Below are positions 15,404 to 48,490 of a stretch of DNA of 64,000 bases, in pieces. Every line of letters begins with the position of its first letter. Within the stretch, counting starts at the first letter, position 1. The notes below the pieces were generated by a model. It had not been told where the DNA came from and ran no database searches. It was given only the letters and a program-made list of their open reading frames with translations. The stretch is from Verrucomicrobiota bacterium (GTDB taxonomy: Bacteria; Verrucomicrobiota; Verrucomicrobiia; Opitutales; Oceanipulchritudinaceae), in the NCBI GenBank assembly GCA_021208135.1, contig JAJOKB010000081.1, positions 488 through 64,487 of the forward strand, in the 5' to 3' direction. The position numbers and the translations under genes were made by a program.

Positions 15404-15772
15404 ATGAATCGAAAACTTTTTGTAGGGAATCTCCCATTCCGTTCATCGGCTGAAGACATCCGTGATCTCTTTGCTCGCGCAGGTGATGTGGAAGACGTGC
15501 TTCTTATCGTGGATAAGATCACCGGACGTCCACGCGGCTTTGGTTTTGTGACCATGGCAAGTGCGGAAGGGGCGGATAATGCCATCCGTGTCTTGGGAGG
15601 CAGTGATTTTCAAGGCAGGTCCATCAAAGTCAGTCTGGCCACTGACAGAGGCGAAGACGAACCCCTGCCGGCGGCTCAGATTGCCCGCAGCAGCGCACCG
15701 CATCAGTTGGAGTCGCGCTACCACCGCCGCCCCGCCCTCGAAAAATCCGTCAATATCGCGCAGCAACCGCTC
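15404..15772 (+). CDS. RNA-recognition-motif (RRM) RNA-binding protein; there is no in-frame stop before trpS, so the 3' end is unresolved
   Basis: MNRKLFVGNLPF (RNP2) ... RGFGFVTM (RNP1) ... GRSIKVSLA is a textbook bacterial RRM. As given, the frame runs straight into the TrpRS ATG at 15773. Confidence 0.8.
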
Positions 15773-25080: not shown

Positions 25081-25082
25081 TG

Positions 25083-27525: not shown

Positions 27526-27529
27526 TGTC

Positions 27530-31149: not shown

Positions 31150-31162
31150 CTCAAACTCCTTT

Positions 31163-31936
31163 TTATCGGCTTAACCAGCCACCGTCGACAACGATTTCAG
31201 AGCCGGTTATGTATTCAGCAGCAGGGGAGGCCAAAAAGACTGCTGCACCCATTAGATCTTCCGGTTGGCCCCAACGACCGGCTGGAATACGCTCTATAAT
31301 TGAACGGTTGCGTACCACGTCTTGACGTAATGGCAAAGTATTGTCAGTTGCGATATACCCTGGAACAATCCCATTCACTGTTATGGCATGAGCGGCCAGC
31401 TCGTTTGCCATTGCTCTGGTCAGACCTTGCAATCCGCTTTTTGCCGCTGTGTATGCTGCAACTCGAATTCCGCCCTGATGGGAAAGCAGGGAGTGGATAT
31501 TGATGATACGTCCAGGCTGTTGACGTTTCACCAACTCGGCGGCACATTTGCGCGAGAGGTCGAACACTGCGGTTAGGTTGATCTCCAGCACTTCACTCCA
31601 ATCGGAGGCCGGGAAATTAATAAAATCAGCCCGTCGGATAATGCCGGCATTGTTACACAGTATGTGCGGAATGGTATCTGCGTTTAACAGGTTATGCCAC
31701 AGTTGTTGGCGGTCTTCGCGGTCTGCCAGGTCGCAGTGAACAGCGAGGTGATTGCCAGCGGGATTCAGTTTTTGCAGTTCGCCAATCAGCGATTCCAGAT
31801 TGCCCCTGGCGACGGCGATCACCGAAGCGCCAGCGGCAGCAAAGCCATGGGCGAGCGCACGACCAATGCCGCGCGAGGCACCCGTGACCAGCGCACGCTT
31901 ACCCATGAGTGAAAAATCTGCTCCCGCTGTTGGCAT
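31163..31936 (-). CDS. kduD: 2-dehydro-3-deoxy-D-gluconate 5-dehydrogenase (SDR family)
   Basis: The protein aligns end to end with E. coli KduD as I remember it: GKRALVTGASRGIG, NNAGIIRR, YTAAKSG, IPAGRWGQPEDLMGAAVFLAS, VDGGWLSR. Confidence 0.85.
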   Translation of the reverse strand: MPTAGADFSLMGKRALVTGASRGIGRALAHGFAAAGASVIAVARGNLESLIGELQKLNPAGNHLAVHCDLADREDRQQLWHNLLNADTIPHILCNNAGIIRRADFINFPASDWSEVLEINLTAVFDLSRKCAAELVKRQQPGRIINIHSLLSHQGGIRVAAYTAAKSGLQGLTRAMANELAAHAITVNGIVPGYIATDNTLPLRQDVVRNRSIIERIPAGRWGQPEDLMGAAVFLASPAAEYITGSEIVVDGGWLSR

Positions 31937-31940
31937 GTGC

Positions 31941-32774
31941 TTATTTGAGTGAATTATTGAGCACCGGATCCATGTCATCAAAGGACTGGTTTTCTCCGCC
32001 CATAGCCCATACAAAGCCGTAATTTGCCGTACCTACACCGGAATGGATCGACCAACTGGGCGATAATACGGCTTGTTGTTCGCGCACTATCAAATGGCGT
32101 GTTTCGTTGGGTTCTCCCATGAGATGGATGACCATCTCGTTTTCTGGCAGGGAGAAATAAAAGTACACCTCAGATCTGCGTGCGTGGGTATGCGTGGGCA
32201 TAGTGTTCCATACACTTCCGGGCTTCAAAAATGTCATCCCCATGACCAATTGGCATGTTTGCACGGTTGCCGGAGTGATGGCCGCGTGAATGCTGCGGTG
32301 ATTGCTGTTTTCACTGGCTCCCATTACCTTGCCGTTACAGGAGTCACCGCGAATCAGTTTTGTCGGATAGGCATGATGGGCAGGGTAACTGACAAAATAG
32401 AAACGGGCATGCTGTCCCTTTTTACGGATCGAGGAAAAGGTAACGTGTTGCGAACCTTTGCCCACATACAGGAAATCATGTGTTTGCAGATCAAATTGAG
32501 TTCCGTCCACGGTCACTTGGCCCGGTGCACCCAGATTCACAATGCCAATTTCGCGGCGCTCACAGAAACAGCTGGAACGCAAAGCTGATTGATTATCCAA
32601 ATCAATCGAGCGTCCATTGGGTATAGCCATGCCTACTATGGTGCGATCTGTTTCCCAATAGCACAATTTCAGGCCACCTTCATTCACCAGATCCTCGATC
32701 AGGAACTGGTTGCGCAGCTTCTGGGTGTCCAGTGATGCTACTTCTCCAACCCCTGTCGCCGGGATGTGGCGCAT
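31941..32774 (-). CDS. kduI: 5-dehydro-4-deoxy-D-glucuronate isomerase (4-deoxy-L-threo-5-hexosulose-uronate ketol-isomerase)
   Basis: The protein is strongly collinear with E. coli KduI: LDTQKLRNQFLIE, WNTMPTHTHARRSEVYFYF, ETRHLIV, AVLSPSWSIHSGVGT, GENQSFDDMD. I chose the start at MRHIP (32774); ATG 32834 is an alternative. Confidence 0.88.
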   Translation of the reverse strand: MRHIPATGVGEVASLDTQKLRNQFLIEDLVNEGGLKLCYWETDRTIVGMAIPNGRSIDLDNQSALRSSCFCERREIGIVNLGAPGQVTVDGTQFDLQTHDFLYVGKGSQHVTFSSIRKKGQHARFYFVSYPAHHAYPTKLIRGDSCNGKVMGASENSNHRSIHAAITPATVQTCQLVMGMTFLKPGSVWNTMPTHTHARRSEVYFYFSLPENEMVIHLMGEPNETRHLIVREQQAVLSPSWSIHSGVGTANYGFVWAMGGENQSFDDMDPVLNNSLK

Positions 32775-32845
32775 ACAATCCGCTACCTCTCCTTTGACCG
32801 GAGGTTTGGTTTTTCGCTTAGTAGGTACCTTCATAAAATTCAGTT

Positions 32846-35743
32846 TTAAAATGTTCCTTTGACGCCGACGGTCCACAGTGCACCGAAGCGCTCGCGCCGC
32901 TCCAGTTTGGCGTAGTCCGGAGTGTCCACTCCGTACCGCAGTTGATCGGTAGGTTCATCGAAAATATTGCGACCGTTCAGGAATACCCGCAGGTATCGTG
33001 CAAAGCGGTATTCGATATTCAGGTCAGTCGTCAGGCGGCGGTCATAATAGCGGTTCCAGAAGGACGGATTGGCTGCTGAATTGCCGACATACACCCCACG
33101 GATGTCTCCAGTGTCACGCATTTGCTTGCCGCGTAAATTCCACTTCAGACGAATATCCCAGCGACCTTTATCATAGGTGATACCCCAATTGGCGGTTTGT
33201 TTAATAAAGCCAGGAACATAGGATGCATCCACCAGCTGATTTTGGCTGGCACCATAATCGCCACGTGTGGTCAGGATGGTCGTATTGGCGAAAACAGAAA
33301 ATCCGTCCAGCAACTCAACCCAGGGGCCAAGATCTTGCACGAATGCGAACTCCAGACCTTTAATGGTGACATCACCCGCGTTGACGGGGCGGCGCATCAA
33401 CCAGCCTTGTTGCACAAAAATAGCATCAATTCCCAATTGATCAGCCAAATCCTGCGTTAGCAAAACCGTCTCATTATCGATGAAACCTTTGATCTGTTTG
33501 TAGAACGCCCCAACCGAAATAAGTCCCCCGGTGTCAAAATAGTACTCTAGAGAAATGTCAAAATTGTCGCCGCTGTATGCCGTCAAATTGGGATTAAAGG
33601 CCTCAATCACAAAGCGCTCTTCACCGGTTTCATCCTCTTCGCGACTGTTGGTGAAACGTATGCCTGGGGCAAGGTCACTGATGTCAGGACGCCCCAATGT
33701 TCTGGCGTAGGCCAAACGGGCTTGCAACCGCTCGTTCACTTCATAGGTGAAATGTAAACTAGGATAAAAATCATCGTAGCTGCTTTTCGATGTTTGGCGC
33801 TGGGCATACTGTGCCCTGATTCTTCTGGCAAGATTGGCCGGTGTGTCTGGTCCGGCAAACTCCGGCTTCAGTACCCGATTCTGTGGATTGTCTCCCAAAA
33901 ACGGATTGATCAGGCGGAAACTGCCGTCGGGATTGCGCTCGTAAATAACCGTGTCATCGCGGGCATAACCTTCACCGCTGTTTGAGGTGCGCTCATAGCG
34001 CACGCCACCCAATATGCGCAACCTGCCATTCATCAGCGCGATCCGCCCCATCAGGTAAGCCGCTGTCACTTCCTCTTCAACTTGTTGGCGATTCTCTTCG
34101 TTGTAGATAACATTGGCGACTTCATCGAAGAAAAAGTGGTCAGGATTGGCTTGGAAATATTGGAATACTTTGCGCGAATCCGGCCACTCCGGTGCCGGCC
34201 AACCCCACCCAAGGCGTTGTCCAACGTAATTCTCATCCCGGAAGAAAGAACTGCCCGGTCCAACTTGATTGAAGATCGGTTGAGTGCGCGGATAGTTGAA
34301 TTCGCGCCGCTCGATCTCACGCTTTTGCTGACGGTATAGCATGCCTGTTTGCAGGGTGAGGCGGTTGCCGCTTACGTCCATGTGCCGGGTCAAATCAAAT
34401 TTGCCGCCATAAATGGTATCGCTGGCATCTTCAGGACGCGACCGCAGGGACTCCAGTACCGTGTCATCGGTCAACGGAAAGGGATCGATCTCCGCACCCG
34501 CTCTGCGGGTAGTCACCGACGCGGGGCCATTGTTGCCAATATCATTGAAATGAATGGCAAGGTTGGCCGGAGTACGGAAAATAACGCGCTCAAAATAACC
34601 ATTGTCAGTATCGCGATACTGATTTTCCGACTTTGAATAATAGCCGTCGTATGTCAGTTCCCACTGATCAAAATAGTGCTTCATTCCCATATCAACGTGG
34701 TTGGTCTGCCCCGACTTTTCCCGCGCCGTCACTTGATGACGAAAACGACCGTTGGGATTGATGTTTGGGTTGGGATTGGTGAAGGTGGGTCCGTAATTGC
34801 CAGCACTGGTACTGGTCTCCCAACGCACTTCCCGATTGAAAAAGGTAGTCGAGTACTCATTGCGCTGATACCCAAACGAGAAAATACTACCAGGACGAAT
34901 CCTCCAGTCCGCTTTGATTCCCAAACTTTCACGCTCCGAGATTTTGGGTCCATCCCGCAGGTTAAAATACCGCAGATAAGGATCGCTCTGCCCTATGGCT
35001 GCATTCACCGAATCCCACTGCGTGATGAAGTATTGCTGCGGCGTAAATGTTTCCGCATTCATGTAATTGATCACAATGCCAAAATCGTCCGTCAGCGGAT
35101 CCGAATAGGTGAAGTCAAAGCCGGGACGGATCTTGCGCGTCGCACCGGCATCAGGACCAGGGGTCCGACTCCAGCGAATATAATCTCCCGGCACATTCAT
35201 AAATACACGGTAGTCAAACTTCCGTTGCGCCAACTCAAATGCGTTGCGACTGACCATGTTTACGGCACCACCCAATGAGTCCGCCTCCATCGCAGGTGTC
35301 GGCACTTTGACCACTTCAATGCGCGCCACATTATTCAACGACACTTGCTCAAATTCAAATGTCCTGCTCGAACTCGACGAGGCCGCACTTGCCATGCGGT
35401 TACCGTCCATAGTCACCGCCGTGAAATTAGACGCCAGTCCGCGCACCGAAACCGAGCGCACGTCTGCAGATACGAAATCAACACTGATGCCAGGCAGGAA
35501 TTTCAGGAATTCGCCGACATTACCCTCCGTTATGTCACCAAAGGCTCCAGCATCCACCACGTTTTTGATGTTCTCCGCCTGCCTCTGGTTCGTTATCGCC
35601 GCACGTATCGCATCAAATTCAGCTCCACGTACTACAAATTCCTCCATCTCGTACACTGGACTTTCCTCCTGCGCGGACGCGACCACACATAGACTCACGG
35701 TCGCAATTGCAACCGGCCAAGTGACTCTTCTTACTCGTTTCAT
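32846..35743 (-). CDS. TonB-dependent outer-membrane receptor (first gene of the pectin operon)
   Basis: The protein has a signal peptide, a plug region (FVVRGAE...IKNVVDAGAFGDITEGNVGEFLKFLPGISV...VRGL) and a long beta-barrel ending in the terminal aromatic ...VGVKGTF. Confidence 0.9.
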   Translation of the reverse strand: MKRVRRVTWPVAIATVSLCVVASAQEESPVYEMEEFVVRGAEFDAIRAAITNQRQAENIKNVVDAGAFGDITEGNVGEFLKFLPGISVDFVSADVRSVSVRGLASNFTAVTMDGNRMASAASSSSSRTFEFEQVSLNNVARIEVVKVPTPAMEADSLGGAVNMVSRNAFELAQRKFDYRVFMNVPGDYIRWSRTPGPDAGATRKIRPGFDFTYSDPLTDDFGIVINYMNAETFTPQQYFITQWDSVNAAIGQSDPYLRYFNLRDGPKISERESLGIKADWRIRPGSIFSFGYQRNEYSTTFFNREVRWETSTSAGNYGPTFTNPNPNINPNGRFRHQVTAREKSGQTNHVDMGMKHYFDQWELTYDGYYSKSENQYRDTDNGYFERVIFRTPANLAIHFNDIGNNGPASVTTRRAGAEIDPFPLTDDTVLESLRSRPEDASDTIYGGKFDLTRHMDVSGNRLTLQTGMLYRQQKREIERREFNYPRTQPIFNQVGPGSSFFRDENYVGQRLGWGWPAPEWPDSRKVFQYFQANPDHFFFDEVANVIYNEENRQQVEEEVTAAYLMGRIALMNGRLRILGGVRYERTSNSGEGYARDDTVIYERNPDGSFRLINPFLGDNPQNRVLKPEFAGPDTPANLARRIRAQYAQRQTSKSSYDDFYPSLHFTYEVNERLQARLAYARTLGRPDISDLAPGIRFTNSREEDETGEERFVIEAFNPNLTAYSGDNFDISLEYYFDTGGLISVGAFYKQIKGFIDNETVLLTQDLADQLGIDAIFVQQGWLMRRPVNAGDVTIKGLEFAFVQDLGPWVELLDGFSVFANTTILTTRGDYGASQNQLVDASYVPGFIKQTANWGITYDKGRWDIRLKWNLRGKQMRDTGDIRGVYVGNSAANPSFWNRYYDRRLTTDLNIEYRFARYLRVFLNGRNIFDEPTDQLRYGVDTPDYAKLERRERFGALWTVGVKGTF

Positions 35744-35770
35744 GGGTTCCTCCGGGGTATTGGGGTTGTG

Positions 35771-35800
35771 AAATTCAAATATGAATAATAAATTCAAATA
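35771..35800. promoter_or_regulatory. Direct repeat of the 11-mer AAATTCAAATA (35771-35781 and 35790-35800) in the divergent TBDR / IclR-regulator intergenic region; candidate operator
   Basis: Two exact copies lie 19 nt apart (start to start) in the 139 nt divergent promoter region. The reverse complement recurs upstream of the PL9 gene. Confidence 0.3.
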
Positions 35801-35882
35801 CGACTGTATTGTTACGATTGTGTGTGTCAAGCGTAGAAAAAAGATTGCGCATAATTAAGATGGGGTGCATTGCGATGAGAGT

Positions 35883-36649
35883 ATGAGTGGAGATTACCGG
35901 ATACCAAACTTGGCGAAAGCGTGTGCGGCGTTGAAATGGATTCAGCGTGAACCTGAGCGTGGGGTCACAGTAAAAATGGTATCCAAGGCGGTGGGCATAC
36001 CGTACACCACCTGTTTCCGAATTTTGCAGACACTGGCTGCTGAGAATTTTCTGAGGCGCGATGGCGACAACTATTTTTTGGGAACAGGATTGATCCCGTT
36101 GGGGTTGGGTGCGCGCAAGAACATGGGTATTCGCACTGTGGCGTTGCCACACCTGCAGGAATTGTCTGCGGCGACAGGGGAGACAGTGCAGTTGGCGATT
36201 CCCACTGAAAATCGCTCCATGATTCTGGAGGTTGTTTACGGCAGTCATCCTCTCAGTGCTACCACTCCCGTCCGGGGACTTTGGTTGAGTTGTATTGTTC
36301 GGCCACGGGCAAGGTGTTTTTGACCTGGGCATTGCGCGATCGTATGGAAGATATCCTTGCAGCCGAAAAGCCACTGCAACGCACGCCCAAGACCCTCACC
36401 ACTGCGGCTGAATTGGGTCGCGACTGTGAGATCATCCGTGATCGCGGATATGCCATCGACGAAGAAGAGTACTTTCTTGGGGTACGTTGTCTGGCAGCAC
36501 CGGTATTTGATGCTGAAGGTCGGTTGCAGGCCGCTGTGGGCATAACCGCTTCCGTCATTACCCTGCCTTTGGATAAGGTGGATGAGTTTGCCGCACGTTT
36601 GCTGGCCACGACCAGAAGAATATCCATGGAGTTCACTGGCGGTCGTTAA
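35883..36649 (+). CDS. IclR-family transcriptional regulator (KdgR-like), with an apparent 1-nt deletion in the G run at 36274-36277
   Basis: The N-terminal wHTH reads LAKACAALKWIQREPERGVTVKMVSKAVGIPYTTCFRILQTL. After the shift the effector domain reads (G)TLVELYCSATGKVFLTWA...RDRGYAIDEEEYFLGVRCLAAPVFD. It is divergent from the pectin operon. Confidence 0.8.
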
Positions 36650-36738
36650 CGGTGGATATTTCGCTCTATTGAGCAACTAAGGGCGCGGACTTTGCAGCCC
36701 GCGCCCTCCTTCGATGCTAACCCCCTACTGAAAAATTG

Positions 36739-37667
36739 TTAGCTTGTGCGCGTGCGGCGACGGAGGATAGCGAAGCCCAGAATCAACAGCCCCGCCAAGG
36801 CAGCATAGGTCGATGGTTCGGGTATGGGTGCCACTGACAGTCCGGTCAGGGTAATGTCAGAGAACTGGTTCATTCCACCGCCCAGGCGAATCGCAATCGA
36901 ATTGAAATCGAGCACAGGGGAAGCGCTGTCGGTTACCGTATAGGTCAATCCCACGAGGTTGCCTCCGGTCAATGATGTGGTGATGGACAGTGTGCCCGCA
37001 CTTTCTACGAAAGATACGCTGAGTAGGAATCTGTGTTGGCGTCCAGATAACCTGTTGCACCACTGGAACCGCTGCCGCCAATAGCAGATCCCCAGACGCC
37101 TGCCGATCCGAGCAAATCATTGCTGTTGGTATCGGTGCGCTTAAAGGTGTTCAGAACCAGGTTGTTGGTGTTGCCTCCGCCCACGAATGAGCCGGACGAA
37201 AACAGCGCATAACCGCGGTCGCCAACATAGGAAGCATCAGTGGAGCCAAATCCATCGGTTGTTCTAAAGCCGTTGGGACTGGAATCCAGGATGGCAATAC
37301 GCAGGTTATTCGGGGTTCCCCCAAATGCGCCTGTGCGGAAGCTCAGGTTTAAGGTTATTCCCTCGCTGCCAACGGATACTGTTGGAAAATAGCCAATCGC
37401 CATGCGATTTGAGGTATTGTTCATGTTCCAGTTCAGTCCGCTGCCAGTGGCCACCATCTGACTGGTGCCATTCACCACCCACTGGGTGTTGGTTGATGTC
37501 GGTGTCGAAATGACCGGGGATGATGCTGTGGTCGACGAACCATCTGTACCGCCTATACGGTCCAGATTCGTAAAGGTGTCATTCACATAGGCAGAGGCAC
37601 CCGCAGGCAACAATACCAAACCAAGTGCACACGATTGAGCGACGAGTTTTACGCGAGATGAGATCAT
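36739..37667 (-). CDS. PEP-CTERM-anchored secreted protein, a stand-alone copy of the domain found at the N-termini of the PL1 and PL9 lyases; apparent frame break near 37003-37012
   Basis: The protein has a signal peptide. ORFs 37005-37667 and 36739-36972 join as ...DSYSAYLSFVESAGTLSITTSLTGGNLVGL... The C-terminus PIPEPSTYAALAGLLILGFAILRRRTRTS is a PEP-CTERM sorting signal. Confidence 0.75.
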
Positions 37668-37870
37668 AGAGCTGAGTTGATTGTGAGGTTATTGGAGTAG
37701 TTCACACTGGAATAATCCATATATGAATTTATGAGCCAAATGTGAATTAATATTTGCCCCATGTCAACACATTATTTTGCACAATTTGTGGATGGGGCTT
37801 TTGCAGAACAAGGTCGGCTTGTTTCGACCGGCGCAAAGAGATGCCGGAATTTAGTTTTGACAATCATGCA

Positions 37871-37904
37871 TATTTGAATTCATATGCGGATTAAGAATTC
37901 AAAA
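37871..37904. promoter_or_regulatory. Inverted pair TATTTGAATT (37871-37880) / AATTCAAAA (37896-37904) upstream of the PL9 gene; candidate operator related to the 35771-35800 repeats
   Basis: TATTTGAATT is the exact reverse complement of AATTCAAATA. A second, near-identical arm lies 15 nt downstream in the opposite orientation, 30 nt before ATG 37934. Confidence 0.3.
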
Positions 37905-37933
37905 CCCCGAAAATCTTTAACTACTCAAGAATT

Positions 37934-40289
37934 ATGATGCGAAATACAGCGAAAGTGGCTGTGCTGGCGTGTGTTTGCACGTTGGTTGTGCCGGAGTTAT
38001 CAGCAAATCAGGTGTTACTGGACGATGATTTCTCGTCTGGTAGTCGTGTGGTCCAGTCTTTGCCTGAGCGTTCTGCGTGGTTTGGGTCCAGTACCGACCG
38101 ACTGTTTGTGAACGAGACCGGTTTGGTCGGTCAACTGGATGGAAGTTCGCGTATGTGGCTGACCTATTTTAGCAATAATACGCCGGTGGAAATAGGAGAG
38201 GGAGGCCGGTTGGTGGTTGATCTGGAGTTCTCCGTAACTGGCGTGAGTGAGACAAATACAAATCGTGGCATGCGCATAGGTCTTTTTTAATTATGCGGCT
38301 GCTGACCGGGTAACGGAAGACGGGTTTTCCAGTGCGGGTGGCAATGGCACCTTGGTAACTGGGTACCTGGTCAACATGAATTTTGCGCGCACCTGGGGAT
38401 TGGATGCTCCGATCGAGCTGCGTCGTCGCGAGCAAGTGAATGACGGAAATCTAATGGGTGCGCTGGCTGTGTTTGGCAGTCCGTTGGGTGTGAGTGGAGC
38501 GCGTACTGGTGAGGCTGGCATTACGGCAAATGTTAAGCATCGATTGCGCTTTGAAGTGGAGCGCACAGGAGCGAATGTGGCCATTACCGTGAAATTGTTC
38601 ACTGGATCCACGCTGCTCGACCAGGTGAGTGTGATTGATGAAGCAGGGGTTACATCCTTTGATGCAATAGCCCTGCGGCCTGCTGGCCCGCTACAGTCTG
38701 CGGAAGAGTTCACTTTCAGCAGGATATATGTGGAATTGGAAGGTGAAATTGCCGAACCGCCTCCGCCACGGGAAAGTCCTTGGGCGGCCATTGCGCCCCT
38801 GGATGCCAATGGCAACAAACCCGGATTGGGCGGAGTCATCAACGATGTTCATTTTCCGTGGGTGTATCATTACGGACTGCCGGGATGGAAGTATATATAT
38901 CCTGAAGCAGAGTTAGGCAGTATGTTTGGTTACGCCTATGTTTTTGGTGGGTACCAATTCTGGACAGCCGACAATGCGCAAGGTTGGCACAGGATAATCG
39001 ACATTGATCAATGGGCCCGCTTTGACCAACTGCCGATACTGGACCTGTTTGACCGATTCCGGCCTCAACCGACACCTGCGGATGTTATTCCTCAGGGCGA
39101 ACGCACGCTGTACGTTGCTTTGTCAGGATCGGATTCTGCGGGTGGCAGTATCAACGCCCCCCTGCGCACGCTGGGGAGGGCTGTGGCCATCTCACAGCCG
39201 GGAGATGTGATCGTGATGCGAGGCGGCGTTTACCAACATAGCAGCACGATTAGTATAGGAACCAGTCGCAGCGGTACCAGTTCACGTCCGATTACTGTGA
39301 TTAATTACCCCGGAGAGTCGGTGATCCTTGATTTCTCCCAGCAAAACAGAGGAAGTGGCAACATCGGGGTGCGTTTGGATGCCTCGAATTGGCGGTTGAT
39401 CGGATTGACTATACGCAACGCCGGTCACAATGGATTGCGCGTCGATGGCAGCAACAATCGCCTGGAACGATTGGTGACTCACAACAATCACGACACAGGC
39501 CTGCATTTGGCAGGAAACGCTTCCCACAATCTGATTCTAAATTGCGACAGTTACCATAATTTTAATACCACGGGGCGTGTGGGCAACAATGCGGATGGGT
39601 TTGGAGCCAAGTTTACCAGTCTCGGGCCAGGCAACTGGTTTTACGGTTGCCGCTCCTGGGAGAATTCTGATGACGGGTTTGATTTCTGGGAAGCTCCAAA
39701 CCCTGTCAGAGTCGAAAATTGTTGGGCCTTCGGTAATGGTGATCCATCGGTTTTCGGATTTCCGGCCAATTTTGAAGGAGCGGGCAATGGCTTCAAATTG
39801 GGCGGCAATTTTGTCGCCGGGAACCACATTGTCATCCGGTCTCTGGCTTTTGACAATCTGGGAACAACCAGGAATGCCAAGGGTTTCGATCACAACAACA
39901 ACACCGGTGCCCTAACGTTTATCCACAACACTGCATTCAACAACGGACGTAATTTTGTCATTCCCAATGTTCCTGTAGGCGGTGGTCAGCATGTGTTCTA
40001 CAACAATCTAAGTGCGCCTTTCATAACACTGGTCCAAATCGCTCCAGGCAGCCTGCAGCAAGGCAATAGCTGGCAGCGTGGTGTGGTTACCGACGCTATG
40101 TTCCGCAGTTTGAATACAGCCTTGGCCAAGAGTCCCAGGCAACCTGATGGTTCATTGCCGGTCATTGATCTGCTAAGACCGTTAGCAGGGAGTTTTCTTA
40201 TCGATGGCGGTGTGGATCTTGGACCCCAGTTTCCATTTTTCGGAGCCGCTCCTGATATCGGCGCTTACGAGTTGATGCCAAATCCATAA
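37934..40289 (+). CDS. Pectate lyase-like right-handed beta-helix protein (PL9-like) with the same unnamed N-terminal domain and Trp/Tyr-rich module as the PL1 lyase; apparent 1-nt insertion in the T6 run at 38283-38288
   Basis: ORF 37934-38290 continues in the next frame as ...MRIGLF-NYAAADRVTEDGFSS...TGYLVNMNF (ORF 38352-40289). The catalytic part shows APLRTLGRAV..PGDVIVMRGGVY, NNADGFGAK, NSDDGFDFW and AGNGFKLGGN, which are beta-helix lyase motifs of the PL9 type. Confidence 0.8.
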
Positions 40290-41286: not shown

Positions 41287-42677
41287 GTGAATAAAGTCCT
41301 CCTCTTCGTTGCTGGTTTGCTGGTTTCCGCCGCAGCCCTTCACTCACAATCTTTCGATCGCGCCAGTCGCAGCGCTCAGACTGACCTGGACAACGCGCTT
41401 CAGCGCTACGCCGAATTACAGGAACGTATCCGCGCCGAGCGCGTTCCTCTCGATCCGCGAGCTCAACGAGTTGCGCTCCGAACTGCAACAAGCCCGCCGG
41501 GAGTCGGACCGCGTGCGCCGAATTCAAGATAACAGCGCCGTTGACCTTAATGCCATGCGCAATCGTGTCGAACGCCGCATTGAGCAACTGGACTTTGTTG
41601 CCAATCTGGTGACCGACTACAGTCAACGCTTTGAGCGCGACATTGATCTCAGTGAGCAGCAGATTTATACCGCTGCCATAGAGCGCTTGCAGCGAGTCAT
41701 GGAAGAGGTGCACGACGACGATGAACTGCAGCGGTCACGCCGCCTGGTAGGTCAGTTGTTTATCCTGCAGGAAGGCATTGGACGATTCAGTCGCCTCCTG
41801 GGTGGTGATACTTTTGAGGGTCGGGCTATTGTCGGTGGTGGACAGGTTGAGGAGGGCACCTTCATCAACTTTGGTCCCACCACATTTTTTTGCCAGCAGC
41901 GAATCTGGCATAGCCGGCCTTTCCCTCCGTACCGGCCTGATTCCCACTGCGGTTCCAATCAGCGCCGAAGCAGATCGCGCTATCAGGGAAGTGGCTGTTA
42001 ATGGCACAGGCATACTGCCGATCGACCCCACTTTAGGCAGCGCTTTTGCCATCGCTTCACAAAAGTTGACCTTGTGGGAGCACATCAGGCAGGGCGGTAT
42101 TTGGATTTGGCCCATTCTCACCTTTGCCTTCCTGGCCTTTGCTACTTCCATGTTCAAGCTGTATGAAATTTACAGCGTGAAAATGCCGCGCACCGGTGCC
42201 CTGCATGATATTCTGGCCGCCTTGAATGCCGGACGCCGCGATGAAGCTTTGGAACTGGCGAAATCTGTTCAGGGTCCTGCCCGGGAAATGTTGATTGATG
42301 CAGTCGAACACTCCAACGAGAGCAAAGAACTCATCGAGGAAGTGATGTACGAGCGCATGCTCGAACTGCAACCACGCTTGGAACGCATGCTGCCCTTTAT
42401 CGCTGTTACCGCCGCAACCGCTCCGCTCATGGGACTGTTGGGCACGGTAACAGGTATGATTAATACCTTCAAGTTGATCACCATCTTCGGTACCGGCGAT
42501 GCCAAGCAGTTGTCCAGTGGTATTTCCGAAGCTTTGGTCACCACGGAGTTCGGTTTGATTGTCGCCATTCCATCCTTGATCATGCACGCTCTGCTCAGCA
42601 GGCGCGCACAATCGGTCATGGCCAACATGGAGCGCATGGCAGTGGCATTCGTCAACGGATTGTCGCGTAAAAACTAG
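41287..42677 (+). CDS. Long MotA/TolQ/ExbB-family proton-channel protein with a periplasmic N-terminal domain (TtpC-like); two apparent frame breaks (~41445-41455 and the T7 run at 41885-41891)
   Basis: Three collinear pieces join into about 460 aa. The C-terminal part shows [27 protein letters not shown]...SSGISEALVTTEFGLIVAIPSLI, which is the ExbB/TolQ signature. Confidence 0.8.
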
Positions 42678-42680
42678 TCC

Positions 42681-43304
42681 GTGGATTTCTACGCACAGTT
42701 TAAGGAAGAGTTCATGACCATCCTGACGGATGGCGGAATTCTCATGCTGCCGCTCGGTTTGTTGGCAATCGCGATCTATGCCATCGCTTTCCGCCTGTTT
42801 TATTATTTTGTCGAACACTCATTCTACAAAATCAAACGCGAGAAGCTTATCGAATATTTGATGAATCCCATAATGGCCACTGGTGAGTTGCGCCAGATCA
42901 TCGACTACACCCAGGATCCAGAAATTGAGTCCAAGGATGAGCTGGCGAGCCGCTTTGCCGAAATTTCCAATGCCTATTTGGCCCACATCGACGCCGCGTG
43001 TGTTCCTGCTGACCTGGTAACAATCGCTCCTCTGATGGGCCTGCTGGGTACTGTCATGGGCATGTTGACCACCTTCAGTGGCCTCGCGGTCAGCGTCGGC
43101 GGCAAAACTGTCGATCAAATCGCCGCTGGTATTTCCGAAGCTTTGATTACCACCCAAACAGGCCTGATCATTGCCATTCCCGGCTATGTGATGGCGTCGA
43201 TGATTCTTAAGCGTCGCGACCAGATGGAGGCCTTCCTCAATTCCGTGCAAGCGATCACCACCCAACTTTTTGAGAAAAAATCCAAACTTCCCTCCGATTT
43301 ATGA
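42681..43304 (+). CDS. exbB: ExbB/TolQ-family proton-channel protein (short form)
   Basis: The protein shows [18 protein letters not shown] and [23 protein letters not shown]. The start could be GTG 42681 or ATG 42714. Confidence 0.85.
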
Positions 43305-43714
43305 AGCGCCGCAGAGTCTTTTCCAATGCCAATAAAAGTGAGGATATCAACATTTCCCCGCTCATCGACATGGTGTTCATTCTCCTGATTTTCTTCATCG
43401 TAACCACCGTGTTCGTCGAAGAAACCGGAGTTGAAATCACCAAACCCCAGGCTGCATCGCAGATCAATCTCGAGAAAAACAGCATTCTTATCGCCATCAC
43501 CGCCAATAACAACGTTGTTTATGGCGGTCGCGATATCGGCGTCAATGGCGTGCGCGCCATCGTCCGTCGTCTTGTGACCGAGGACCCGAATATGCCGGTT
43601 ATTATTCAGGCCGATGAAAACGTGCCCACCCGTCTGCTGGTTCGCGTCCTTGATGAGGCCAAGCTTGCAGGCCGTTTTCGGTCAACATTTCCACCGACAA
43701 TTAAGGTTTTTTAG
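43301..43714 (+). CDS. exbD: ExbD/TolR biopolymer transport protein
   Basis: 137 aa reading [19 protein letters not shown], then a periplasmic domain with [22 protein letters not shown]. There is an ATGA overlap with exbB. Confidence 0.87.
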
Positions 43715-43715
43715 C

Positions 43716-44395
43716 ATGAGTTTTCCACAGCGCCAGACCGGTTTTCAGGTTCCTCAGTCGAACCGCTACCTGATCCGGATCGTATTCGGCACAGCGATCA
43801 CCACGCTGGCGATACTGGCTATTTTGCCTTTTACTCAGGTTCTTTCCGGGGATCCGCGCGATGGACGACGCTTTATTCCAATTGAGGCAGTGCTGCCCCC
43901 GCCGGAGCCACCGCCACCGGAACCACCGCCTCCCCCCCGAGGAAGATCAACGCGAAGATGTGCGTGGATCTGGATATGACGCCTCCGCCTCTTAGTCTGA
44001 GCCAGCTTGAAGCAGCTTTGAACCCTGGTATCGGTGATGGCTTGCTGCAAGCGGTTAATTTGGATGGGTTTGGCGGCGGTCCCGATGTTGGTTCAGAACT
44101 CACCATCTTTGAATTGCGCGATCTGGACAGGCAGCCCCGACGCTTGACCACCGTGCAACCACAGTTTCCTGCCGACTTTCAGGTGCGCGGATTGCGCGGC
44201 GAGGTGCGCGTGCGCATCCTCATCGACGAGCAGGGCAACGTTTCCATTCTTGAAGTGGTCGGATCCACCCATCCGGAAGCGGTCCAGCCCGTGCGCCAGG
44301 CTCTCGTCCGCTGGCGTTTCGAGCCTCCCATGCGCAACGGGCAACCAGTGCGCGCACAATACATCCAACCCATCGGTTATAATTTCTCCCAGTAA
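43716..44395 (+). CDS. tonB: TonB-family energy transducer, with one or two apparent indels between 43932 and 43965 (C7 run)
   Basis: An N-terminal TM anchor is followed by a Pro-rich spacer (PPPEPPPPEPPPPP) and then the C-terminal TonB domain (RGLRGEVRVRILIDEQGNVSILEVVGSTHPE...ALVRWRFEPPMRNGQPV). Confidence 0.82.
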
Positions 44396-44401
44396 TTTAT
44401 C

Positions 44402-45757
44402 ATGCGTACATTTCTTAGCTTGTTTGCTCTCGCACTGGCATTCACACCAGCTCACGGTCAGATTTTTCCGCTCAGCGAGAATCGTTGGGACAATCCTGAG
44501 TTCCGTCAGCGATTTTTAGGTTCATTCGGCGTCAATACCCGCATTGAGCCTGAACTCAGTCGCGACGAAGCCACTTTGTTTGGCGAATTGGTTGATCTTA
44601 TCGGTACCAATCCCGATCAAGCCATTGCCCGCCTGCGCGCGGCTTTGACTGCTGAGTCGAGCGCGGCACTGGATTACACACTTGCCAGCTTGCTATTACA
44701 GCAAGGCGATTTGCCGGCCGCCGTGCGCAATTACCGCAATGCGATTCGCAAATTCCCCAATTTCATGCGCGCTTATCGCAACCTCGGTTTGGCTTTGGTT
44801 CAACAGGGTGAATTTGCCGATGCCATTCCCATGTTGGTCAAAGCGATCGAACTCGGCGACGGCGATGGCAACACCTTTGGCTTGCTTGGATTTTCCTACT
44901 TGAATGTCGATCGCCCCAGGTCGGCGTTGGATGCCTACCGTACGGCCTACATGTTGCGTCCCGACAGCCGCGACTGGAAGATCGGGTTGGCCCAGGCGCT
45001 TACTATGAATGGCGACCACGCGCAAGCCAGCGCAATTCTGCGCGAGATGATCGAAGCCAATCCAGCTCAAACCTCACTTTGGCTAACCCGGGTCAATTCG
45101 CTTATCTCCCTCGGGCAAGAAATGGAAGCCGCCGCTCACCTTGAGGTGCTCAGCCGAATGGAGGCCGCCAATGCCGCCTCATTGCGCCTGCTCGGTGATA
45201 TTTATTTGAATGCTGCCATGCCCCAGCTCGCAGTTGCCAATTACAGCCGCGCCATGCGCGTGGATGGCGGTTTGCCCATTGGCCAGGCCCTCGGTGCCGC
45301 CCGCAACTTGCTTACATTCGCCGCTTTTGATGAAGCTGCAGAATTTGTTCAGTTGCTCGAACAAAAGTTTCAGGGGGAATTGGATGATTCGCAGCATGTC
45401 GCACTTTTGAATCTGGTCGCAGAAATTGCCCTCGCCAGAGGTGAGGATTCCGAAGCTGCAGCTACCCTCGAACGCGTGCTGCAAACTGACCCTCTCAACG
45501 GCAGAGCCTTGCTCTTGCTGGGCAATTACTACAATCGCTCCGGCAATGTCGAGGAGGCTGAATTTTTCTACCGGCGCGCTGCTACCATCGAAAGTGTTCA
45601 GGTCGATGCCTTGATCCAACATGCGCGCATGCTGGTCAGTACCCGCAATTTCGCAGGCGCCGTTCCTTTGCTCGAACGCGCGCAAAGCATCCGCCCCAAC
45701 TCCAACGTCGAAGCTTACCTGACCGCTGTGCGCAGCGCCCGCGACGCTGCCCGCTGA
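44402..45757 (+). CDS. Tetratricopeptide-repeat protein (TtpD-like last gene of the TonB2-type cluster)
   Basis: An intact 451 aa ORF with a signal peptide and multiple TPR-like repeats (e.g. AVRNYRNAIRKFPNFMRAYRNLGLALVQQGEFADAI). Confidence 0.75.
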   Translation: MRTFLSLFALALAFTPAHGQIFPLSENRWDNPEFRQRFLGSFGVNTRIEPELSRDEATLFGELVDLIGTNPDQAIARLRAALTAESSAALDYTLASLLLQQGDLPAAVRNYRNAIRKFPNFMRAYRNLGLALVQQGEFADAIPMLVKAIELGDGDGNTFGLLGFSYLNVDRPRSALDAYRTAYMLRPDSRDWKIGLAQALTMNGDHAQASAILREMIEANPAQTSLWLTRVNSLISLGQEMEAAAHLEVLSRMEAANAASLRLLGDIYLNAAMPQLAVANYSRAMRVDGGLPIGQALGAARNLLTFAAFDEAAEFVQLLEQKFQGELDDSQHVALLNLVAEIALARGEDSEAAATLERVLQTDPLNGRALLLLGNYYNRSGNVEEAEFFYRRAATIESVQVDALIQHARMLVSTRNFAGAVPLLERAQSIRPNSNVEAYLTAVRSARDAAR

Positions 45758-45841
45758 GAACAGGTACGCTTTTTGCTTGATTTTTAACAAAAGGGTAGCT
45801 ACGGCTGTCCTCGATAACCATACAAACTAACTAAGAACCAT

Positions 45842-48490
45842 ATGAAGAACCTATCATCTCGTGAGGGATCCGCCTGGCGGCGGATCTTGGCTGGTGTCCT
45901 GGTCGCAGGATTTTTAACCCAGCCCGTAGTGTCCGCTCAGGAAGTGGACGAACTGGAAACCTTTACCGTTACAGGTTCGCGTATTCCGCGTCTGGATCTT
46001 GAAGGTGTTGCTCCAGTTGTTGTCATCACCGCTCAAGATGTTCAAGCCTCCGGCTTTAACACCCTCGGTGACTACCTGCAGTCTTTGCCTGCAAACAGCG
46101 GTGCTGTCAACGCCATCACTGAAGCTGCAAGCTTCACCCGTGGTGCCACCACCCTGAACTTGCGTGGTTTGGGCGGTAACCGTTTCCTCACCCTGATCAA
46201 TGGTCGCCGTGTAGCTCCCTACGCTTTGACCAATTCCAATCAGGCTCTGGTATTCGACTTCAACAGCTTGCCTCCTTCAGCGATCGAAGCCATTGACTTC
46301 CTCAAAGAAGGCGCTTCCGCTATTTACGGTTCCGACGCTGTGACTGGTGTGCTCAACATCCGTCTCCGCCGTGACTTCGAGGGCATGGATGTCGGCATGA
46401 CTATCGGTAACACCGATGGCCACGACATGATGTTCCGCTCTGTCAATGCTGCTGTCGGTACTTCCTCCGGTAACACTTCCATTATGGTTGCTGCTACTTT
46501 CCAGGATTCCAACGACAGTTTCGCAAACGACTACAAGCGTTCACGCACCTCGAACTACTCTTTCCTCGGGGATCGCGGTATCGACTTGCGCAGTGCGTTC
46601 AACTTCCCAGCCAACGTGAACTTGTCCCCAGCTCAGTTGACAGCTGCCGGTCTTCCGGTGCCTACCAACGCAAACGGCGATCCAGTAGCGCAGTTCTACG
46701 CCACCATCAATCCTGAAGGTGTTGCCAATCCAACTGTTGCTGACTTCCGCCCAGGTGCCGCTAATCTGAATCGTTTCGAATTCGCACCTTTCATTCAGCT
46801 CTATCCGAAGTACAAGTACATGTCCGTGTTCTCATCGATCCGTCATGACATCACCGACAGCCTGCATGCCTTCGCTGAATTTTCGTTCGCTTCCAACACG
46901 ACCGATTATACCTTCACTCCAGCGGTTGTGAATTCCACAACCACATTCGTTCCATCCACGGGCCGCGCTTTGGTTCTGCCAGCAAACAATCCCTTCAATC
47001 CTTTTGGCGTTGAAGTGACTGACTTGCGCTACCGCACTTCCTTCCTGCCTTCCCGTACATTCCTCATCGAGACCATCGCTCCTCGTTTCCTCGTGGGCCT
47101 CGGCGGTGAGTTTTCCGGTTGGAATTGGGATTCCGGTATGATCTATTCATACAATCAGGTCACTGAAACTGCTGGCAATGCGATCCGTGCTGACGATTTG
47201 CAAAATGCTTTGGCCGGTACTACCACGGACACAGCCATCAATCCTTTCGGCCCTACACCTAATCAGGATCTGCTGAACAATCTGCTCGTTTCCTCGATTT
47301 CCACTGCCAAGGTTGAAGTTCTCAGCTTCGACTTCAATGCCAGCGGCAATATTATGGACTTCGAATTCGGCACCCTCGGTGCAGCTTTCGGTTTTGAATA
47401 CCGCGAAGAAATTCTCAGCGATCGCCCTGACGCCAATTCTTATGTTGGTTCCGGTGGTGGTGATCCTTTCCGTGGCACTCGCCAAGTGGCTGCAGCTTAC
47501 GCTGAATTGGGTCTTCCAGTGGGTCAAATGTTCGAATTCTCCGTTGCCGGTCGTTTCGAAGATTATTCCGATTTCGGTAGCACTGCCAAGCCAAAGTTTG
47601 GTGCCCGCTTCCGTCCTCTCGACTGGTTGATGTTCCGCGCTTCGTTCTCCAAGTCCTTCAAGGCTCCTGAACTCGGTCGTCTGTTCGCTGCTTCCCAGCA
47701 GTCCTTCAGTCAGCAGTTCGTAGATCCTAACTTCCCAGGAGAACCACCAGTACAGGTTCTCTATGTCACTGGCGGTAATCGTGATCTTCAGCCGGAAACT
47801 GGCCGCAGCATTTACCTCGGCACTGTAATCGAAGTTCCCGGTGTTCAAGGTTTGTCTTTGAGCCTCGACTACCTCGATTTCAAGATCGAAGACGTTATCG
47901 TTGACCTCCGCAGCTTCACCACCAATTTCGTTGTGACCAATCCAGGTCTCTTCCCTGGTGCTGTCGTTCGCGACCCGGGAACCGGCCGTATTACTCAGAT
48001 CAACGCTTTGCCACAAAATCAGGCACTCGAGCGCTGGAAGGGTATCGATATCGGTCTCCGCTATAATTTGGAAACCAACGATATGGGTTCCTTCCGCTTT
48101 GGTTTCGATGCTACCCGCATCCTCAACACCGGTCGTGATGGTGGCGTCGGCGGTGGTTACTCAAACCGCGTTGGCTTGTATGGCACACCAAAATGGCGTG
48201 CTAACCTGAATGCAGGCTGGACCCGCGGCGATTACAGCGCTGCTGTGTTCATCGACTATATGGGCGGTTTCGATTGGGATGCTTCCGGCGATATCAGCAA
48301 CAGCTCCTACATCCGCGTCAATCCTTCGGTCAGCTATAGCGGCTTCTGGGATACACGCGTGACTCTCGGCGTCAACAATGTGTTCGACAGCAATCCTCCT
48401 TCAGATGGTTTCTATATCGAAGGTTTCGACACCAGCCTGTACAATGGTATGAGCCGCTTCTGGTACTTGCGCATCGAGCGCTCGTTCTAA
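45842..48490 (+). CDS. TonB-dependent outer-membrane receptor
   Basis: The protein has a signal peptide, a TonB box/plug (ETFTVTGSRIPR...LNLRGLGGNRFLTLINGRR...GASAIYGSDAVTGVLNI) and a barrel ending RFWYLRIERSF. Confidence 0.9.
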   Translation: MKNLSSREGSAWRRILAGVLVAGFLTQPVVSAQEVDELETFTVTGSRIPRLDLEGVAPVVVITAQDVQASGFNTLGDYLQSLPANSGAVNAITEAASFTRGATTLNLRGLGGNRFLTLINGRRVAPYALTNSNQALVFDFNSLPPSAIEAIDFLKEGASAIYGSDAVTGVLNIRLRRDFEGMDVGMTIGNTDGHDMMFRSVNAAVGTSSGNTSIMVAATFQDSNDSFANDYKRSRTSNYSFLGDRGIDLRSAFNFPANVNLSPAQLTAAGLPVPTNANGDPVAQFYATINPEGVANPTVADFRPGAANLNRFEFAPFIQLYPKYKYMSVFSSIRHDITDSLHAFAEFSFASNTTDYTFTPAVVNSTTTFVPSTGRALVLPANNPFNPFGVEVTDLRYRTSFLPSRTFLIETIAPRFLVGLGGEFSGWNWDSGMIYSYNQVTETAGNAIRADDLQNALAGTTTDTAINPFGPTPNQDLLNNLLVSSISTAKVEVLSFDFNASGNIMDFEFGTLGAAFGFEYREEILSDRPDANSYVGSGGGDPFRGTRQVAAAYAELGLPVGQMFEFSVAGRFEDYSDFGSTAKPKFGARFRPLDWLMFRASFSKSFKAPELGRLFAASQQSFSQQFVDPNFPGEPPVQVLYVTGGNRDLQPETGRSIYLGTVIEVPGVQGLSLSLDYLDFKIEDVIVDLRSFTTNFVVTNPGLFPGAVVRDPGTGRITQINALPQNQALERWKGIDIGLRYNLETNDMGSFRFGFDATRILNTGRDGGVGGGYSNRVGLYGTPKWRANLNAGWTRGDYSAAVFIDYMGGFDWDASGDISNSSYIRVNPSVSYSGFWDTRVTLGVNNVFDSNPPSDGFYIEGFDTSLYNGMSRFWYLRIERSF

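Follow-up and report, generated by a model that had tools for sequence, protein, structure and literature searches.

Verrucomicrobiota and Planctomycetota rank among the major degraders of polysaccharides from plants and algae and are not known to have the SusC/D system that underlies glycan capture in Bacteroidota. Among the described systems, the carbohydrate-binding modules CBM32, CBM35 and CBM77 are pectin- and uronate-binding modules of pectinases, and CBM35 recognises uronic acids via Ca2+. The module analysed here resembles them in being, by prediction, a non-catalytic beta-sandwich fused to enzymes of the PL1, PL9 and GH28 type, sometimes in tandem, but it is about twice their size and also occurs by itself as a PEP-CTERM protein. 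L-type lectins (legume lectins as well as Emp46p/Emp47p, VIP36 and ERGIC-53/LMAN1) have the same two-sheet beta-sandwich of about 230-250 residues, with TM values up to 0.58/0.63 (4gky). They share no detectable sequence relationship with the module and agree with it in structure only at the level of the fold (TM about 0.5, rmsd 6-7 A, 9-14% identity). Unlike the L-type lectins compared, the module is bacterial and appended to polysaccharide lyases or PEP-CTERM anchors. The stand-alone form is also reminiscent of the SusD- and SusE/F-like SGBPs of Bacteroidota, as it is predicted to be a non-enzymatic protein anchored at the surface, and its gene lies in a glycan-utilisation locus beside a TonB-dependent receptor and a regulator. 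However, SusD is alpha-helical and TPR-like, SGBPs carry a lipid anchor instead of the PEP-CTERM/exosortase signal of the module, and the adjacency of the module to TonB-dependent receptors is not general. Finally, the occurrence of the module with a PEP-CTERM anchor, with a '...RFYRV..P' domain or with no anchor recalls the 'choice-of-anchor' families of NCBIfam, but neither these nor any other NCBIfam model matches the module.

Three copies of the module were located in the window, i.e. the whole stretch of 64,000 nucleotides that was analysed, each of them by BLASTP, tblastn and profile search. The relevant features are:

21047-23235, minus strand: PL1 pectate lyase gene, encoding a signal peptide, the module, a Trp/Tyr-rich spacer and a PF00544 catalytic domain
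22402-23157, minus strand: copy 1, residues 27-278 of the PL1 pectate lyase, immediately after the signal peptide
23289-32876, minus strand: rest of the pectin-utilisation operon, with TRAP transporter DctM/Q/P, GH28, an unknown 398-aa secreted protein, DUF4861-GH88, KduD-like dehydrogenase and KduI (Pfam assignments)
32846-35830, minus strand: TonB-dependent receptor (Plug and TonB_dep_Rec_b-barrel), flanking the regulator and the PEP-CTERM gene
35865-36649, plus strand: IclR-family regulator, HTH_IclR and IclR_C on two overlapping open reading frames, with a base missing at about 36265
36739-37667, minus strand: stand-alone PEP-CTERM protein gene, encoding a signal peptide, the module and a PEP-CTERM anchor; 309 aa in its intact form
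36742-36828, minus strand: PEP-CTERM sorting signal, with IPEPS motif, hydrophobic helix and RRRTR
36829-37592, minus strand: copy 3, inside the PEP-CTERM protein
37934-40289, plus strand: PL9-like pectate lyase gene, divided in the window into two open reading frames (37934-38290 and 38352-40289)
38006-38744, plus strand: copy 2, at the N-terminus of the PL9-like lyase

The sequence-only reading had placed one related domain in these three genes, at the N-termini of two different lyase families and in a PEP-CTERM protein encoded next to a regulator. All of these placements were borne out. The catalytic domain of the PL1 enzyme matches PF00544 at residues 465-653 (E=3.4e-33, 115.5 bits, cut-off 24), the PL9-like enzyme matches the Pel9A-like beta-helix family PF22842 (E=1.7e-25, 90.2 bits, cut-off 25.2), and the PEP-CTERM signal of copy 3 is recognised at residues 281-306 by TIGR02595 (22.8 bits, cut-off 16) and by PF07589, whose cut-off of 20.7 bits is barely cleared with 21.0 bits. 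The carrier genes had, however, been taken as continuous, and two breaks within modules had been read through. In the window all three carrier genes are frameshifted, and the breaks of copies 2 and 3 lie inside the module. The PL9-like gene is interrupted together with copy 2 by one extra T in a T6 run at 38283-38288, and its ortholog P0009 is uninterrupted at the equivalent site; in the NCBI annotation the two pieces are individual proteins (MCD8482990 and MCD8482991). One missing base at about 37027 divides the PEP-CTERM gene into open reading frames at 37005-37667 and 36739-36972. The PL1 gene is shifted near 21080-21085, close to the C-terminus, so that the listed open reading frame continues to 20908 while the true stop lies at about 21047; the intact version P0006 has 715 aa and the C-terminus GVGKIDPFDGLP, for which the codons lie in a different frame at 21050-21079. 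The independent short-read assembly L086 is 99.76% identical to the window across positions 31882-38223 and differs over this range by just two indels, one at about 37027 and the other at about 36265, which restore an intact copy 3 (309 aa, P0154) and an intact IclR regulator of 246 aa. Since both genes are intact in so similar a sequence, these breaks are specific to the assembly or the strain of the window. The arrangement of TonB-dependent receptor, regulator and PEP-CTERM gene is unchanged in L086.

The three regions are copies of one homologous module, and all pairs are significantly similar. Copies 1 and 2 share 39% identity over 256 columns (BLASTP, E=5e-55). For copy 3, an approximate frameshift repair that deviates from P0154 by about six residues around the indel was used in the pairwise BLASTP and tblastn comparisons and in alignments A1 and A4. 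In this form it is 24% identical to copy 2 over 253 columns (BLASTP, E=1e-6), whereas with copy 1 BLASTP aligned the C-terminal 63 residues alone (E=6e-5) and tblastn extended the similarity to 237 aa (E=2.7e-7). The blocks quoted in the sequence-only reading share columns in a MAFFT alignment. An independent profile of seven domains, all from other genomes and none from the window, scored 213.5 bits for copy 2 (after removal of one T), 194.7 bits for copy 1 and 73.0 bits (E=1.3e-21) for copy 3 in the form of P0154. Copy 3 is Gly/Ser/Thr-rich, has 24-26% identity to the other two copies and falls into a divergent subfamily with an inserted 'DRIGGxDGSST...TPTSxNTQW' segment. A fourth copy was not detected in the window by tblastn. 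The 398-aa protein encoded nearby (27530-28726) was considered as a distant fourth copy and rejected (hhalign probability 0.5%), and BLASTP did not support a relationship between the Trp/Tyr-rich spacers of the PL1 and PL9 enzymes (E>1).

The earlier view of the domain as undescribed holds with respect to its name but not with respect to its fold. At E<=1, neither Pfam-A, including Lectin_legB, Lectin_leg-like and the other families of that clan, nor NCBIfam yielded a match to the module in the three window proteins, and no Pfam family recurred on the module in 64 plus 27 other carriers. Pfam models of CBMs likewise matched no module in the window proteins or the other carriers, although newer CBM families that have no Pfam model or structure may still match. 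A 48-sequence profile had no match among PDB sequences at E<=10, phmmer against PDB chain sequences returned only noise, and a full-text literature search found no paper describing the module. The AlphaFold model of copy 1 (pLDDT 95.1, pTM 0.92) is all-beta with 14-15 strands, and Foldseek returned 263 matches to PDB entries at E<=1e-3. The best 50 of these consist entirely of L-type lectins and lectin-like legume proteins, with no enzyme among them (E=4e-8 to 1e-6, probability 1.0, TM 0.44-0.63). According to this model the fold of the module is an L-type-lectin or concanavalin-A-like beta-sandwich and not a new one. A first model based on four sequences (pLDDT 71) had as its top match YesU of Bacillus subtilis (1oq1, DUF1961, E=9.4e-8, TM 0.51/0.56), a protein of galectin-like fold and unknown function that shows no sequence similarity to the module and whose gene presumably lies in a rhamnogalacturonan-utilisation cluster; this low-confidence model was set aside, as YesU is absent from the top 50 of the good model.

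An exhaustive HMMER search of 1.84 billion representative sequences revealed 744 clusters (50% identity) at E<=1e-3 and 410 at E<=1e-10, whereas word-indexed homolog searches had returned only two and nine proteins. A genome scan with DNA patterns from alignment A2 matched 82 stretches, none of which was confirmed, while alignment A5 succeeded. Members of the family occur widely in Verrucomicrobiota and Planctomycetota. Their matches cover profile positions 2-252, and the module typically begins straight after the signal peptide and is present in one to four tandem copies per protein. About one quarter of the top members are proteins of about 300 aa with a PEP-CTERM anchor; across the family the C-terminus is often a PEP-CTERM or '...RFYRV..P' domain, and other members are without an anchor. 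Among 64 proteins of the representative set, the module is fused to PL1 in 10, to Beta_helix in six, to PL9-like enzymes and to chondroitinase-B (PL6) in two each, and to PL7, GH88, GH39, GH115_C and esterases in one each. PL1 also occurs in 16 of the 27 long carriers from species-representative genomes, a count possibly inflated by orthologs of a single protein of about 1200 aa, and GH28 in one. Most of the partner enzymes target uronic-acid polymers, whereas GH39, BNR_2 and the esterases have no clear tie to pectin. Ig-like domains are found in 26/64 and 19/27 carriers, some of which contain no recognisable enzyme. The sharp boundaries, the tandem copies and the occurrence within PL1, PL9-like, GH28, PL6, PL7, GH88, GH39 and GH115_C proteins characterise a contiguous module appended to carbohydrate-active enzymes. 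Fused and stand-alone copies are intermixed by nearest-neighbour identity, as would be expected of a shuffled binding module.

The genomic surroundings point in the same direction. In the related locus L082 the gene order of the operon is conserved, and so is the fusion, with two module copies in the PL1 enzyme and one in the PL9 enzyme. Copies that stand alone are located in loci for glycan utilisation. The 78 open reading frames neighbouring 22 stand-alone copies include four CE8 pectinesterases, four GH28 enzymes and five proteins with CBM96. Individual stand-alone copies adjoin PL9 genes, RHGA-like genes, a GH115 gene accompanied by an esterase, or a TonB-dependent receptor together with genes of sugar-acid catabolism, and the stand-alone member P0159 is encoded directly upstream of a TonB-dependent receptor. 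Adjacency to such receptors is confined to some loci of the family. The module constitutes a discrete, mobile family that is strongly tied to pectinolytic genes.

Across 161 copies, Arg88, Arg99, Arg139, Arg191, Tyr118, Tyr183, Trp24, Asp103, Asp216 and Asp225 are each conserved at 87-99% (Y118 99%, R139 97%, D225 95%, D103 94%, Y183 94%), and several of them are positioned on beta-strands of the model; no His or Glu is prominently conserved. This Arg/Tyr/Asp pattern is compatible with a putative cleft for an anionic glycan. Together, the fold, the domain architecture and the gene context suggest pectin binding or surface tethering, presumably with a carbohydrate partner, an acidic ligand, a putative binding site of Arg, Tyr and Asp residues and exposure of the PEP-CTERM form at the cell surface. 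The favoured reading, to which a probability of roughly 0.6 is assigned, is that the three regions represent one uncatalogued L-type-lectin-fold module of about 250 residues, most likely a non-catalytic binder of pectic or other uronic-acid polysaccharides that is carried by enzymes and by a surface protein. Fused to the N-termini of the secreted PL1 and PL9 enzymes, it would keep them on their substrate in the manner of a CBM. The stand-alone PEP-CTERM protein, whose gene lies beside the regulator of the locus and the TonB-dependent receptor, would present the binding module on the cell surface, where pectin or its fragments could be captured close to the uptake machinery. The module is a candidate for a new CBM family. 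Counted against glycan binding are the missing sequence link to any characterised lectin or CBM, the lectin match at fold level only, the many carriers with Ig-like domains, the carriers that contain no recognisable enzyme, the partners without a pectin tie and the patchy adjacency to TonB-dependent receptors. In addition, near-invariant charged residues at a mean family identity of about 30% are commoner in catalytic sites, or in sites for a single constant ligand, than in CBMs, which counts against the CBM-like reading.

A constant ligand could be provided by the cell itself. The module might bind an invariable component of the envelope or exopolysaccharide of the cell, or pair with its PEP-CTERM paralog, and thereby hold secreted lyases at the cell. 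The presence of the module in an anchored protein and in anchorless enzymes of the same locus agrees with this, as do the near-invariance of the putative site despite differing partner enzymes, the frequent PEP-CTERM or '...RFYRV..P' ends, which make surface display a recurrent property, and the many members that combine it with Ig-like domains only. Lectin-fold proteins also commonly dimerise via their sheets. This explanation is nevertheless unlikely, although it is the strongest of the alternatives: L082 encodes module-bearing PL1 and PL9 enzymes but has no anchored stand-alone copy within 22 kb, the module is associated specifically with enzymes and loci for pectin and uronates and not with secreted proteins in general, and arrays of two to four copies suit avidity for a polymer better than one-to-one docking. 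Somewhat less probable still is a scaffolding role in place of substrate binding, in which anchored copies pair with lyase copies, or both bind a constant envelope glycan, so that Verrucomicrobiota and Planctomycetota would assemble cellulosome-like sets of enzymes for pectin and uronan degradation at the surface without cohesin-dockerin pairs.

The very strong conservation of Arg, Tyr and Asp on strands would also suit an enzyme, i.e. a new catalytic family of the beta-jelly-roll type with pectin or acidic glycans as substrates, which would make the lyases bifunctional and the PEP-CTERM protein an anchored enzyme. Metal-independent polysaccharide lyases typically use Arg and Tyr for catalysis, many enzymes that act on glycans have the concanavalin-A-like fold, with PL7-type lyases and GH16-type hydrolases as precedents in the same superfamily, and paired catalytic modules in one CAZyme are common. 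However, the best 50 structural matches are lectins and lectin-like legume proteins and no enzymes, catalytic domains seldom form tandems of two to four copies or pair so frequently with nothing but Ig-like domains, sequence similarity to PL, GH and CE families is absent in Pfam and PDB sequences, and the lack of a prominent conserved His or Glu also argues against catalysis, which makes an enzymatic function improbable. That the similarity is meaningless, arising at least for copy 3 from its low-complexity, Gly/Ser/Thr-rich composition or by chance and worsened by frameshift read-through, might be suspected from its low identity to the other copies, from the short BLASTP alignment with copy 1 and from the correction needed in two of three copies, but is refuted by its 73 bits compared with at most 7.0 bits in 1000 composition-matched shuffles, by its intact form in another assembly and by hundreds of homologs with identical boundaries.

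Its wide occurrence in at least 744 clusters, the lack of an annotation, its attachment to pectate lyases and its predicted display by itself on a PEP-CTERM anchor in pectin loci make the module a concrete candidate for acidic-polysaccharide binding at the cell surface of Verrucomicrobiota and Planctomycetota. If binding holds true, the module would define a new CBM family, hundreds of proteins annotated as 'hypothetical' or 'PEP-CTERM sorting domain-containing' would receive a name, and pectin and uronan loci in metagenomes would gain a marker. No new principle would be involved, since binding modules of lectin fold are already well known from CAZymes. With regard to the sorting of the stand-alone protein, no exosortase was found within the 64 kb window, to which this search was confined. 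The only candidate is an EpsI-like/DUF3485 open reading frame at 12387-13157 on the minus strand, which matches TIGR02914 below threshold (22.9 bits, cut-off 42.8).

The three copies of the module in the window, each of about 250 residues, were located as follows:

22402-23157, minus strand: copy 1, in the PL1 pectate lyase
38006-38744, plus strand: copy 2, in the PL9-like lyase
36829-37592, minus strand: copy 3, in the PEP-CTERM protein

The alignment of these three regions described in the sequence-only reading was confirmed by pairwise BLASTP and tblastn comparisons and by an independent profile. Copies 1 and 2 are 39% identical across 256 aligned columns (E=5e-55), and copies 2 and 3 are 24% identical across 253 (E=1e-6). 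Copies 1 and 3 were matched by BLASTP in the C-terminal part only (E=6e-5) and by tblastn across 237 residues (E=2.7e-7). The independent profile, built from seven domains that all come from other genomes in order to avoid circularity, scored 213.5 bits for copy 2, 194.7 bits for copy 1 and 73.0 bits for copy 3 (E=1.3e-21), and the best of 1000 shuffled versions of copy 3 reached 7.0 bits. Chance similarity of the three copies is excluded. No further copy was detected in the window by tblastn.

As that reading had also supposed, the module carries no family name: Pfam-A and NCBIfam gave no match at E<=1. The PDB sequences likewise contained no match, not even at E<=10 when a profile of 48 sequences was used, and a literature search found no published description. 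The extent of the family was determined by an exhaustive HMMER survey of 1.84 billion representative proteins, which yielded 744 clusters at E<=1e-3, of which 410 remained at E<=1e-10 and 47 at E<=1e-30, with matches spanning the whole profile (positions 2-252). Proteins harbor one to four copies in tandem, and in single-copy proteins the module usually starts right behind the signal peptide. In species-representative genomes 68 loci were detected by a scan, almost all from Verrucomicrobiota (Verrucomicrobiia, Limisphaerales, Opitutaceae, Spartobacteria) or Planctomycetota (Phycisphaerae, Pirellulales, Planctomycetaceae). The few module-carrying MAGs labelled as unrelated phyla are probably mis-binned.

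AlphaFold, supplied with the 48-sequence alignment, produced a confident all-beta model (pLDDT 95.1, pTM 0.92). Foldseek found 263 matches to this model in the PDB at E<=1e-3, and the top 50 are all L-type lectins or lectin-like legume proteins, including Emp46p/Emp47p, VIP36, ERGIC-53 and legume lectins (E 4e-8 to 1e-6, probability 1.0, TM 0.44-0.63, identity 9-14%). The predicted structure thus places the module in the concanavalin-A-like superfamily at the level of the fold, which does not amount to membership of a lectin family. Across 161 module copies, numbered from Asn27 of PL1, the best conserved residues are Y118 (99%), G117 and F224 (98% each), W24 and R139 (97% each), D225 (95%), D103, Y183 and F53 (94% each), R88 (91%), R99 (88%), and R13, R191 and D216 (87% each). 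Several of the most conserved ones are located in beta-strands of the model. The conserved residues would line a single cleft that is exposed and positively charged and could accommodate the carboxylates of uronates.

The domains accompanying the module were identified by Pfam scans of 64 representative fusion proteins and 27 genome proteins, which revealed no recurrent Pfam family on the module itself. Ig-like domains were the most frequent partners (26/64 representatives, 19/27 genome proteins), followed by PL1 pectate lyase (10 and 16, respectively) and Beta_helix (6 and 1). PL9-like domains occur in two of the representatives and are not listed among the genome proteins. Chondroitinase-B (PL6) was found twice and PL7, GH88, GH39, GH115_C, BNR_2 and esterases once each, in the representatives only; a single GH28 occurs among the genome proteins only. 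The partner enzymes belong to several families, mostly active on uronic-acid polymers. Of the 150 best representatives, 35 are PEP-CTERM-ended proteins of 260-400 aa and 48 end in a '...RFYRV..P' C-terminal domain, the rest having other endings or being fragments. The nearest neighbour by identity is a long fusion protein for 13 of the 35 PEP-CTERM copies. Stand-alone and fused copies are therefore intermixed, the pattern expected of a shuffled module.

In the window the module belongs to a pectin-utilisation locus at about 21 to 40 kb, with the gene order:

20908-23235, minus strand: PL1 pectate lyase (listed ORF)
TRAP transporter DctM/Q/P
GH28
27530-28726, minus strand: secreted protein of 398 aa, no family assignment
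DUF4861-GH88 fusion
KduD-like dehydrogenase, then KduI
32846-35830: TonB-dependent receptor
35865-36649: IclR regulator
36739-37667, minus strand: PEP-CTERM protein
37934-40289: PL9-like lyase

The same operon is present in another organism (locus L082), where two module copies are located on PL1 and one on PL9. Among 78 ORFs around 22 stand-alone copies there are four CE8 pectinesterases, four GH28 and five CBM96-containing proteins. One stand-alone copy adjoins an esterase and a GH115, one lies immediately upstream of a TonB-dependent receptor and beside sugar-acid catabolism genes, and one has two PL9 genes nearby. Others are found close to RHGA-like enzymes with LacI regulators or adjoin giant Ig-PL9 proteins. 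Pectinolytic loci are enriched for stand-alone copies, and the fusion is kept in relatives.

The lectin-like fold, the discrete boundaries, the tandem repeats, the partner enzymes, the locus context and the conserved fusion together argue for a non-catalytic module that binds pectic or acidic polysaccharides, a reading to which we assign a probability of about 0.58. Attached to the lyases, the module would play the part of a CBM, and the PEP-CTERM form, encoded beside a regulator and a TonB-dependent receptor, would serve as a surface glycan-binding protein. A module for cell-surface tethering or self-association is an unlikely alternative, favoured by a putative 'site' that is invariant although the partners vary and by the frequency of sorting-type C-termini among the members. 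That the module is a new beta-jelly-roll catalytic domain is very improbable: the strong conservation of Arg and Tyr residues would fit, but tandem arrays and structural matches to lectins only speak against it.

Among known proteins, the closest counterparts of the module are the L-type lectins, in fold only, together with two groups that match it in proposed role. CBMs that bind pectin or uronates, such as CBM32, CBM35 and CBM77, have the role proposed here, but are unrelated in sequence and half the size. Bacteroidota surface glycan-binding proteins share the role proposed for the stand-alone form, but differ in fold and anchor. Judged against Pfam models and solved structures, the module is a candidate for a new lectin-fold CBM family. 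This sizeable family lacks annotation and is relevant to the capture of acidic polysaccharides by Verrucomicrobiota and Planctomycetota. The principle itself is already familiar, and the function of the module is a prediction.

All three carrier genes are disrupted in the window. In the PL9 gene the break lies within the module, where a T6 run (38283-38288) has one T too many; the PEP-CTERM gene is likewise broken within the module, near 37027. In PL1 a frameshift occurs at ~21080-21085, about 12 codons ahead of the true stop (~21047), and IclR is interrupted at ~36265. In the NCBI annotation the gene fragments were entered as separate proteins. An independent short-read assembly (L086) is 99.76% identical to window positions 31882-38223 and has only two indels (~37027 and ~36265), which restore a PEP-CTERM protein of 309 aa (P0154) and an IclR of 246 aa. 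PL1 is also known in an intact form of 715 aa (P0006). The breaks most likely result from an error-prone assembly of this MAG and not from biology. Elsewhere in the window, single-base frameshifts interrupt further genes: a DUF4838 protein is split in two (9932-11251 and 11248-12390) and an ORF at 13190-15328 is in three pieces. Relative to L086, ten substitutions are clustered in a stretch of ~80 bp that surrounds the indel of copy 3 (36957-37038), against only three across the remaining 6.3 kb; this cluster could be a mixed-strain local mis-consensus or a recombination patch.

Two further segments recur in these proteins. About a third of the family members carry a C-terminal domain of ~75 residues with the pattern '...LTWxS...YxVQ...W...T...RFYRVxxP' (for example P0007, P0008, P0010, P0016, P0033 and P0098; loci L010, L015 and L017). 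It had no NCBIfam match when scanned alone, and its full-length carriers showed no recurrent Pfam family. Family members seem to end either in this domain or in PEP-CTERM, so that Verrucomicrobiota and Planctomycetota may have here a sorting or anchoring domain not recognised before. Trp/Tyr/Gly-rich segments of ~100-130 aa, such as 'FPWVYHYGLPGWKYIYPEAELGSMFGYAYVFGGYQFW', separate the module from the catalytic domains in PL1 (~22000-22400, minus strand) and PL9 (~38800-39100, plus strand). One also forms the C-terminus of the 398-aa protein, and similar ones end several family members (P0003, P0075, P0138). Pfam and NCBIfam contain no match for them, and between the spacers of PL1 and PL9 BLASTP showed no significant similarity. 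They may represent a repeat-type cell-surface or glycan-binding region.

The 398-aa protein itself has no Pfam or NCBIfam match and was rejected as a distant module copy (hhalign probability 0.5%). At its operon position L082 has a gene of 378 aa, recorded without any Pfam hit. The protein seems to be a conserved part of the pectin operon that awaits characterisation. The PL9 gene is closely followed downstream by another cluster for outer-membrane uptake (41778-48490, plus strand). Its genes encode a MotA/ExbB-family protein (41778-42677), a protein with TPRs (44402-45757) and the second TonB-dependent receptor of the region (45842-48490), and the cluster may power uptake on behalf of the pectin locus. 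The ORF at 12387-13157 (minus strand) matches the exosortase-associated EpsI/DUF3485 domain below threshold (PF11984, E=3.2e-10; TIGR02914, 22.9 bits against a cut-off of 42.8). It may belong to the exosortase machinery that would process the PEP-CTERM protein, although its surroundings showed no exosortase proper. A single ORF at 15362-16447 (plus strand) encodes both an RNA-recognition motif at the N-terminus (RRM_1, residues 19-89) and, at residues 146-354, the core of a class I Trp/Tyr tRNA synthetase; it is either an unusual fusion or the product of an assembly indel joining two adjacent genes. Among the family members, the 245-aa P0001 from a 1068-bp JGI metagenome contig (L007) joins the N-terminal ~95 residues of the module directly to the last ~150 of a PL1 lyase. 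It could be a deletion variant, or else the short contig is a chimera.
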